A DNA stretch of 64,000 bases from Girardia tigrina (taxonomy: Eukaryota), in the NCBI GenBank assembly GCA_001938485.1, contig MQRK01232473.1:9009-73008 (forward strand). Direction: 5' to 3'. The notes under the pieces are model-generated. The model saw only the letters and a program-made list of their open reading frames with translations. It was not told where the DNA came from and searched no databases. Each line of letters starts with the position of its first letter. The first letter of the stretch is position 1. Positions 21,328 to 22,864 of this stretch are shown here, piece by piece. The position numbers and the translations under genes are program-made.

Positions 21328-22160
21328 GTAGAACAAACACATGTATAAAAATCATTTTTAGCTGTACGAGCCTTGAAATTTTATATTTCACTATAAATAT
21401 GTTAATTTCTTTCCTTCTTCTTCTAATTCATGCAAATGTGCACAGTAATTTAATATTTTCTATCTTTCAGATGCATCCTGTGTCCCAATCGTCGCAATGA
21501 TTTCTCAAAAAATGAAGCATATGTATGAAAACTTGACACAGAAATTTCACGATAATGAGCCATCTGAAGGCTATCGACAAGTGTCATTCTCTCAATGACA
21601 AAATCGTAAGGGAATGGTTGATCGCCATTGTGAGGAGCTACCTGAGTTGTTAGGGACCCTCGCATTAATAAAGAGATACCACATATTGATAAACTCACTC
21701 GCAGAGAGGAGTGTAAGGATAGGCTTATACGTGCCTTTCAGAAACAGCCTATCTGTCCATTAGAAATTCTCCTACCATCTAGCTGGACACCAAATGAGCC
21801 TATCTCGGCTTAGTCCATAAAATTTTTTGGGTTAGCCATTCGCTCAATACACTATGGCAACATCTTCTACCGCGATGTCCAGTCCGGTTTGACTAGACTC
21901 TTGAATGAATTGTTTGTTGCGGTATATCCTTGACCCAGCTTCTATCAAAATCTATTGATTTATAATGATATGAATAAAAAGATGGTAGTGATAAAACCAC
22001 TATAACCCGTGATGGAAAGTTTCAGATATTATGGGATTATACCGACATAGCATACCCAAAACTTTTAATGTTCCGTATTACAGGTTGATAGCCTTGTGTA
22101 ACTACGCAGCATCGGCCCCTCTTATAATTAGAGATACCAAGGTATCAGTTATTCCCGAAA

Positions 22161-22864
22161 TTGCACTCCGTTGCCATTGATATCACTGATAGCTTAGAAG
22201 AAGAGGTGGCTGAACAGATAAACGATATTTATATATCTTCTCCCAAGGAAATATCTGTTTTTGCTGTGGAGTTCATATTACAAGACGATGTGCCAAACCC
22301 GTTTTACCAACTTTCACACCTCCAAATAAGTTCCGATTTTCAGGTCAGTGAAATGTTGGTCGCACAAAGAACGTCGTTCATTAGAAAGAATCTTTCTTTA
22401 AAAGAAATTAGACTTCGTTTAAGGTTCTTGGATGCTGAATTTGTCAAAGATGCCGATAAAAAGTTTCATGTAGCGACGCTTACGCTCATGAATTTTAGTG
22501 GGAAATTGTTAATGAACACCCGAGTTAGGGCCCGTACTAGGATAACAGAATGGGCCACAGGGTGTCATGGATTAGAGGATGGAGACCTCATAGGTTCGGT
22601 GGATGAGTATGAGGTAATTGCAGAGCTGCATAAAAACCTGTACGGTAACATTATTGTTGGTCATGATCTCCAAATGGAGATCAGAGGATTGACCATACCC
22701 ACATATACTCTGTTGGGTAATCGCGACACCGCAGCAGCAAAGGTTTTTAATTTGTTAGGTATCAGACCAAAAAATGAAGGAAGTTTTTATAGCCTAAAAT
22801 CATTGGCGTGGGAGATCCTAAGAGAACCAATATAGATCGACATCCATAATTCTCATGAGGATAC
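22161..22864 (+). pseudogene. DEDDh 3'-5' exonuclease, ISG20/REX4-like, inside the gypsy element
   Basis: ExoI FLDAEFV, GKLLMNT, ITEWATGCHGL, ExoII IIVGHDL, RDTA, SLKSLAWEIL and ExoIII HNSHED. One stop at 22833-35; truncated by an insertion at 22865. Confidence 0.8.

Follow-up and report, generated by a model that had tools for sequence, protein, structure and literature searches.

An ISG20/REX4-type exonuclease gene carried by a Burro-like lineage of Gypsy retroelements and its decayed copy in Girardia tigrina

To our knowledge, few animal retroelements encode RNA-directed enzymes, and we know of no rotifer exonuclease for which a function has been shown. Behind pol, the bdelloid rotifer LTR retrotransposons Juno and Vesta have an additional reading frame, ORF3, for a 3'–5' exonuclease of the DnaQ fold (Rodriguez et al. 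2017, PMC5408684). The Burro and GYPSM1 elements, giant Gypsy elements of planarians, consist of one giant ORF in which gag and a mononegavirus-like fusion protein precede protease, RT, RNase H and integrase; they carry ankyrin, ubiquitin-like and TRAF/MATH cargo, and decayed copies of them are found in AT-rich genomes (PMC6431247). In arenaviruses and nidoviruses, the captured DEDDh nuclease ExoN serves the virus in immune suppression or proofreading (PMC7968707). Cells themselves encode ISG20, ISG20L2, AEN and REXO4 (Pfam RNase_T).

The gene analyzed here recalls each of these systems: rotifer ORF3 in its fold and its separate place behind pol, Burro and GYPSM1 in the architecture and cargo described for them, ExoN in being a captured DEDDh nuclease, and the cellular enzymes in fold, DEDDh residues and domain length. 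It was found in 64,000 nucleotides of Girardia tigrina DNA (contig MQRK01232473.1; hereafter the window) with a GC content of 30%; planarian genomes exceed 70% A/T (PMC11410931). The gene is family-wide and apparently undescribed. A literature search returned no report of a DEDDh or ISG20-type gene from an LTR element, and Grohme et al. 2018 or the Repbase entry GYPSM1 may already note one.

The retroelement in the window and its decayed accessory gene

The features of the retroelement, its accessory gene and the DNA transposon that surrounds them are as follows, in window positions.

17222–30015 (−): mariner DNA transposon with the retroelement inserted in its 3' end; terminal repeats at 17222 and ~30006–30015, transposase at 28793–29852, empty site in other copies
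17361–17480 (+): 5' LTR remnant of ~120 bp, starting TGTTGAGG, with ATAT before it; aligns with the 3' LTR with 8 mismatches and 2 gaps
17482–19430 (+): decayed pol (end of RT, RNase H, integrase); Pfam RT_RNaseH_2, rve and Integrase_H2C2, tree placement with env-in-frame polyproteins, and a contig continuing into RT at 17482
19447–19761 (+): post-integrase extension typical of the giant env-in-frame clade; phmmer against the post-integrase regions of clade proteins, best E=1e-7
19765–20421 (+): decayed ORF that weakly resembles the ankyrin region of P0178 (E=0.01); neither of its two pieces matches Pfam
20698–21327 (+): open frame with one hydrophobic segment; best 19-residue Kyte–Doolittle mean 2.15
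21456–21470 (+): T-rich splice-acceptor-like site adjoining an ATG; same layout across the clade
21471–22865 (+): accessory gene, 5' part, broken; N-terminal extension, beta-helix domain and DEDDh exonuclease
21830–22385, limits approximate (+): match to the N-terminal double-stranded beta-helix (cupin/AlkB-like) domain of the clade; in hhalign, P0006/P0008 reach a probability of 94.9% against it, the fold being modelled in relatives
22410–22865 (+): ISG20/REX4-type DEDDh exonuclease domain, all five catalytic residues there, stop at 22833
22866–27440, limits approximate (+): nested composite insert splitting the accessory gene; leucine-rich repeat (LRR), ubiquitin, BEL/Pao gag DUF1759 and a CCDC149 piece (Pfam)
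27482–27963 (+): accessory gene, 3' tail, low-complexity with an acidic end, broken; P0007 alignment at 61–66% identity
28097–28125 (+): polypurine-tract position with a C-run in place of the G-run; same form in L002, L012, L032, L039 and L045
28126–28788 (+): 3' LTR of 663 bp, TGTT...AACA, then ATAA; defined by the empty-site joint and its ends

The limits of the retroelement follow from a joint of 17355 to 28788 in contigs of three of four sequencing runs, at which four letters fit either side. Because the flanks are the mariner element, this joint represents empty sites in other mariner copies, and the retroelement can thus be delimited as 17361–28788. Its target-site flanks, ATAT (5') and ATAA (3'), agree in three of four letters. 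The order RT–RNase H–integrase, the TG...CA ends of the LTR and the short target duplication are features of a Gypsy/Ty3 LTR retrotransposon. The initial annotation had proposed a 555-bp LTR, which was rejected at the 3' side since it ends at an internal CA of the 663-bp repeat; the 5' LTR is reduced to its ~120-bp remnant. Just after that remnant, gag, env, protease and most of RT have been deleted from this copy. The post-integrase stretch has significant matches to the giant env-in-frame clade only.

At the polypurine-tract position, the C-run (GGAC..TTTT..CCCCC..GAT/TG) is shared by the window and five loci from metagenomes (L002, L012, L032, L039 and L045), which form two sequence groups; the usual G-run is present in L013 and L014. 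Rfam gave no match in the window, L011, L012 or L045. The transmembrane ORF of the initial annotation exists as the hydrophobic frame at 20698–21327 and has no relative among the sequences compared. Its identity as env was rejected, since the env of relatives lies upstream of the protease and the ORF has no env match.

The composite insert is covered by many contigs, contains an assembly gap (23838–24008) and includes a CCDC149 piece that looks intronless; a search for terminal repeats of this insert found none. Elsewhere in the window there are several mariner fragments and inverted-repeat elements, as well as two minus-strand exons of a host NDE1/NudE gene (40897–41196 and, by eye, 33337–33549) matching P0282. 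A 489-aa open frame at 30564–32033 has no Pfam match at E 0.1 and is presumably a hAT-type transposase.

In the accessory gene itself, LDAEF (ExoI, 22428–22442), VGHDL (ExoII, 22656–22670) and HNSHED (ExoIII, 22845–22862) lie in a single frame, as had been read from the sequence initially, with an in-frame stop at 22833 between ExoII and ExoIII. All five catalytic positions (ExoI D-x-E, ExoII D, ExoIII H-x4-D) are intact. The degraded coding sequence that had been recognized upstream turned out to be the 5' half of the same gene: the homologous protein P0006 aligns to 21506–22352 in four pieces (E=3e-93), and its first residues agree by eye with the first codons of the window gene. A second homologue, P0007, spans both sides of the composite insert, aligning in order to 22674–22865, 27482–27784 and 27751–27960 with 61–67% identity, so that the low-complexity tail expected to resume downstream can be placed at 27482–27963. 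Residues 65–201 of P0007 have no counterpart in the window. Because P0006 covers the 5' half and P0007 the nuclease end and tail, the gene once spanned 21471–27963, with ~700 codons. A contig joint of 22699 to 27789 is present in two runs; the intervening letters are not known. Seven premature stops, five frameshifts and a 4.6-kb insert replacing ~137 codons make the window copy a dead relic, whose value lies in the clade that it revealed.

Further copies were found in runs X1 and X2 of one study, which may itself be the source of the window, where 20 and 23 contigs, a depth that is not a copy number, lie over one nuclease site and the longest listed pieces differ by ~15%. Since overlapping contigs diverge to this extent, the exonuclease gene must be multi-copy in the DNA of these runs.

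The encoded protein and its clade

The ISG20/REX4-like DEDDh identity first suggested by the motifs was confirmed by several comparisons. Among PDB sequences, the window exonuclease matches ISG20 (1wlj, E=6e-4) and ISG20L2 (7yw5, E=1.5e-3) and no others, and its first Atlas matches are a REX4-like (0.93) and an ISG20 (0.92) cluster; the Pfam RNase_T match (E=0.0086) is below the curated cut-off. Five close homologues share 67–74% identity with it.

Searched with a profile, 1.84 billion representatives yielded 270 matches, of which the best 150 were examined. Of 161 proteins gathered, 143 had a domain long enough for a tree, and this tree splits 59 rows, that of the window included, from 84 cellular-type rows. 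IQ-TREE on 61 chosen rows returned the same split (31 versus 30 rows, support 100/99). The tree is unrooted, has few named cellular rows (REX4 of Mesocestoides, AEN of Lingula, and Geosiphon and Anoplocephala proteins) and includes neither a named ISG20 sequence nor a REXO1/PAN2 outgroup. By this phylogeny, an unnamed clade of ~59 proteins separates from the cellular REX4/ISG20-type nucleases. None of 14 clade proteins looked up is informatively named. The clade has motifs of its own, FxDxEF and GxRD, and keeps D-E-D-H-D in 72 of 82 complete domains (rows partly redundant), whereas nine of the 82 have two or fewer catalytic residues left. Unbroken members are under purifying selection, with dN/dS of 0.04–0.18 in 9 of 14 pairs (those computable), values that are rough because most dS is saturated.

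Structure prediction added a second domain that the initial annotation had not included. The model of clade member P0012 (pLDDT 79) has two folded domains and a disordered tail. Its nuclease is closest to ISG20 (1wlj; Z 19.4, rmsd 2.3, 161 residues aligned), followed by Pan2, a DNA polymerase domain and the small-RNA nuclease SDN1 (Z 14.9); the fold also matches DnaQ- and TREX-type enzymes. The N-terminal domain, modelled alone (pLDDT 84.6), is a double-stranded beta-helix whose fold matches are tied between ALKBH6 (Z 11.3), Ofd2 (Z 11.2) and the cupin 3rns (Z 11.1). This domain was detected in 38 of the 59 clade rows and in none of the 84 cellular rows. In the window's subfamily it is diverged (hhalign 94.9%) and preceded by an extra N-terminal stretch; a profile built from the loci alone missed this subfamily and a wider one found it. 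Metal ligands in AlkB and cupin proteins follow the motifs HxD/E...H and HxH...E...H. Neither is conserved in 28 sequences of the domain, whose only invariants are one His, one Pro and one Gly. An active AlkB-type (2OG-Fe(II) oxygenase) enzyme was thus rejected for want of a conserved metal triad. The encoded protein consists of a beta-helix domain, an ISG20/REX4-type 3'–5' exonuclease and a disordered tail, and it probably has exoribonuclease activity.

Position and expression of the gene in related elements

A motif that 42 of the 69 listed clade proteins share, and that other proteins lack, was scanned as DNA in contigs. The scan yielded 45 metagenome loci, of which 36 contain the nuclease (in 42 ORFs); the other nine and 18 prokaryote loci lack an exonuclease match and were treated as chance. 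Viral contigs gave 0 loci. Polyprotein sequence lies upstream on the same strand in eight of the 36 exonuclease loci and on the opposite strand in none. Where at least 5 kb of upstream sequence is available, five of six loci hold pol; where at least 1.2 kb is available, 7 of 14 have no polyprotein piece there.

In L011, the accessory gene is linked to a 3700-aa protein (P0176) that combines in one frame a zinc knuckle, a Monjiviricetes-type fusion protein (env), protease, RT, RNase H and integrase. The same env-before-protease order is found in L018, and P0178 and P0192 also have env in frame between gag and protease; single ORFs in the lineage reach 3000–4057 aa. L012 shows the downstream side, where the nuclease is followed by the polypurine-tract position, an LTR of ~1.6 kb, a primer-binding-like site, which we take to be of the lysine type, and gag. 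In the pol tree, which kept 101 of 125 rows and carries a long-branch warning at the window's row, the RNase H and integrase of the window group with five locus pols and env-in-frame proteins in a clade of 24 rows (support 99). Two groupings, L003 with L020 and L011 with L018, appear in the nuclease tree as well as in the pol tree, which fits joint descent, few rows testing this.

Unbroken members are thus located downstream of giant, Burro-like gag-env-pol polyproteins and before the 3' LTR. The accessory gene is regular cargo of this element lineage, inherited with the element and sited between pol and the 3' LTR, which agrees with the accessory role first proposed for it and now extends to a giant env-in-frame lineage. 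The exonuclease is present in many other family members, in divergent contigs of two DNA runs as well as in the metagenome loci. It could also be supposed that the gene is a host gene copy, or the passenger of a second nested element, that lies between these LTRs by accident, as the window is heavily nested (mariner, Gypsy and composite insert) and a close-alignment search of metagenome and viral contigs gave no locus, pol-attached or other, of the window's subfamily. The evidence largely refutes this reading and leaves it very improbable: the tail has no poly(A) after it and runs via a short 3' region directly into the polypurine-tract position and the LTR, L012 and its relatives share this position and 3' signature, and the clade stands apart from the cellular enzymes, among which the N-terminal domain occurs in 0 of 84 rows. 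Nor is the gene the recent host retrocopy that had initially been considered.

Other cargo accompanies the gene. Ankyrin repeats occur in L003, L017, L020 and P0178, a TRAF/MATH ORF in L002 and L045, and a ubiquitin match, below the cut-off, in P0178. In four elements (L003/L017, L020, L040 and L004), an open paralogue of ~460–490 aa lacking the DEDDh residues lies directly upstream of, and in tandem with, the active-type gene; such dead paralogues had not been foreseen. Up to six accessory ORFs stand in a row (L045 at 2975–7047; also L002, L012, L039 and L011), most of them with a T-rich YAG immediately ahead of the ATG, and one is a full RING/zf-TRAF/MATH protein. An Ig domain follows the integrase in P0244, and a second aspartic-protease-like domain, before or after pol, is found in P0192, P0205, P0220, P0225, L003 and L020.

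The starts of these ORFs bear on expression. In the window, the strong acceptor-like site noticed at the outset is present (TTTTCTATCTTTCAG, 21456–21470), with the ATG at 21471 immediately after it; T[TG]YAG followed directly by ATG occurs six times in the window on both strands. Across the clade, 29 ORFs with a complete start, in 16 groups at 70% identity, were examined for T[TG]YAG no more than 9 bases from the first Met. The pattern is present in 10 of the 16 groups. Among the controls it occurs at 6 of the 175 internal Mets, at 3% of the upstream positions and at 5 of the 53 starts of antisense ORFs (Fisher p=4e-5 for this last comparison, with groups that are not independent). These figures are to be read knowing that the pattern was picked after the sequences had been viewed, that the groups are related and that TAG doubles as a frame-opening stop. 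It is also present in 16 of 51 other same-strand ORFs, further accessory genes among them. A single donor-like site was seen in the 3' LTR, at 28312. No splice joint was found in run X9, whose RNA status is a guess and which has two short diverged exonuclease pieces. The splicing that the initial annotation regarded as possible gains support from these clade-wide acceptors, and spliced subgenomic expression of the accessory gene is quite probable.

Possible function and comparison with known systems

The initial annotation had suggested action against small-RNA silencing or competing elements. About an even chance is given to the reading that a giant env-bearing Gypsy (Burro-like) lineage has long carried the gene as an accessory and uses it in counter-defence against RNA-based silencing or sensing by the host. 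In live copies, splicing would join the leader to the acceptor at the ATG and yield a subgenomic mRNA for this gene, the other accessory ORFs likewise being served by acceptors of their own. The nuclease would attack single-stranded RNA at its 3' ends, trimming or destroying it; the choice of substrate or partner might fall to the beta-helix domain, which shows no metal triad. The likeliest use would be to remove RNAs that trigger or direct silencing or sensing of the element by the host. Dead paralogues may act as RNA-binding decoys or adaptors. As TRAF/MATH, ankyrin, ubiquitin and Ig domains are present, the cargo of the clade can be seen as interacting with the host. A further point in favour of counter-defence is that, in planarians, PIWI represses Burro1 (PMC8532177). 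Against counter-defence, PIWI-bound piRNAs have a methylated 3' end that resists such enzymes. The rotifer DEDDy ORF also counts against it, as copy number was not clearly linked to that ORF (PMC5408684). A more specific version, in which the lineage has a complex-retrovirus expression plan and a near-constant cupin-exonuclease disarms PIWI or RNA sensing, with a dead twin helping in some elements, is tentative and rather less likely to hold.

A role in replication instead, in which the enzyme would work in the particle to trim the 3' ends of genomic RNA, cDNA or primers, or serve as a proofreader for an unusually long genome in the manner of nidovirus ExoN, is unlikely, with arguments on both sides. 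The elements are very long, to judge from their single ORFs, the gene is conserved and almost constant in the clade, several members have the odd C-run at the polypurine tract, and the nuclease fold extends to DnaQ and TREX-type enzymes. In addition, 3'-end processing has been proposed for rotifer ORF3 (PMC5408684), and in nidoviruses genome size has been linked to ExoN (PMC7968707). Conversely, the exonuclease is a separate ORF amid host-directed cargo; it is fused to pol in none of the best 150 of 270 matches (longest 904 aa) and in none of the polyproteins scanned. The dead paralogues are maintained as open frames, and L013 and L014, with their normal G-run, have the gene too.

The kinship with ISG20, its closest solved relative, raises a further reading, namely that the nuclease harms competing elements or RNA viruses and so protects the niche of the element or the host. 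ISG20 restricts many RNA viruses and HIV-1 (PMC7756014), and antiviral roles have been proposed for retrotransposon accessory domains (PMC6338049). An unselective nuclease would hit the element's own RNA as well, and the tree (unrooted, with no named ISG20 row) shows no special tie to ISG20, so that restriction of this kind seems improbable.

If counter-defence is the true function, an animal retroelement would here encode an enzyme against silencing, and one testable by RNAi if the host is a planarian. Planarians depend on PIWI to control such elements, and RNAi is routinely done in them; in such a host the fight-back of a transposon against small-RNA silencing would be open to experiment. 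The clade, kept under selection through a deep radiation, supplies natural proteins without breaks, and their dead twins, that can be assayed directly.

In comparison with known systems, the clade protein differs from cellular ISG20, ISG20L2, AEN and REXO4 in forming a separate clade with its own motifs, in its N-terminal beta-helix domain and in being borne by a mobile element. It differs from the viral ExoN proteins in origin and host, and no zinc fingers were noted in it; the retroelement context is new. With Burro and GYPSM1, the likeness in env-in-frame organization is seen in relatives, since this region is missing from the window copy, whose pol falls in one clade with theirs. The LTRs here are short (663 bp in the window, ~1.6 kb in L012). 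Burro/GYPSM1 elements exceed 30 kb in total; the window copy is shortened by its deletion, and the relatives were seen at less than full length. BIR, Bcl-2, Smc, AIR1 and dUTPase, known from Burro/GYPSM1, had no Pfam match in 25 proteins, several of them partial, Pfam being less sensitive than the HHpred used in the published analysis. The section on Burro in the review names no exonuclease (PMC6431247), and the present finding fills in unannotated accessory ORFs of Burro-like elements. From Juno and Vesta, the lineage differs in the fusion of the nuclease to a beta-helix domain and in elements with env in frame and several accessory ORFs, some with a dead paralogue. The rotifer ORF3 genes are described as typically expressed from spliced messages, as the gene analyzed here probably is; they encode an RNase D-like DEDDy (DEED) enzyme, whereas the clade gene encodes a DEDDh enzyme with the ExoIII His and ISG20-type matches (PMC5408684). 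The gene analyzed here and its relatives are an independent capture, in a different lineage, of a nuclease class other than the rotifer DEDDy.
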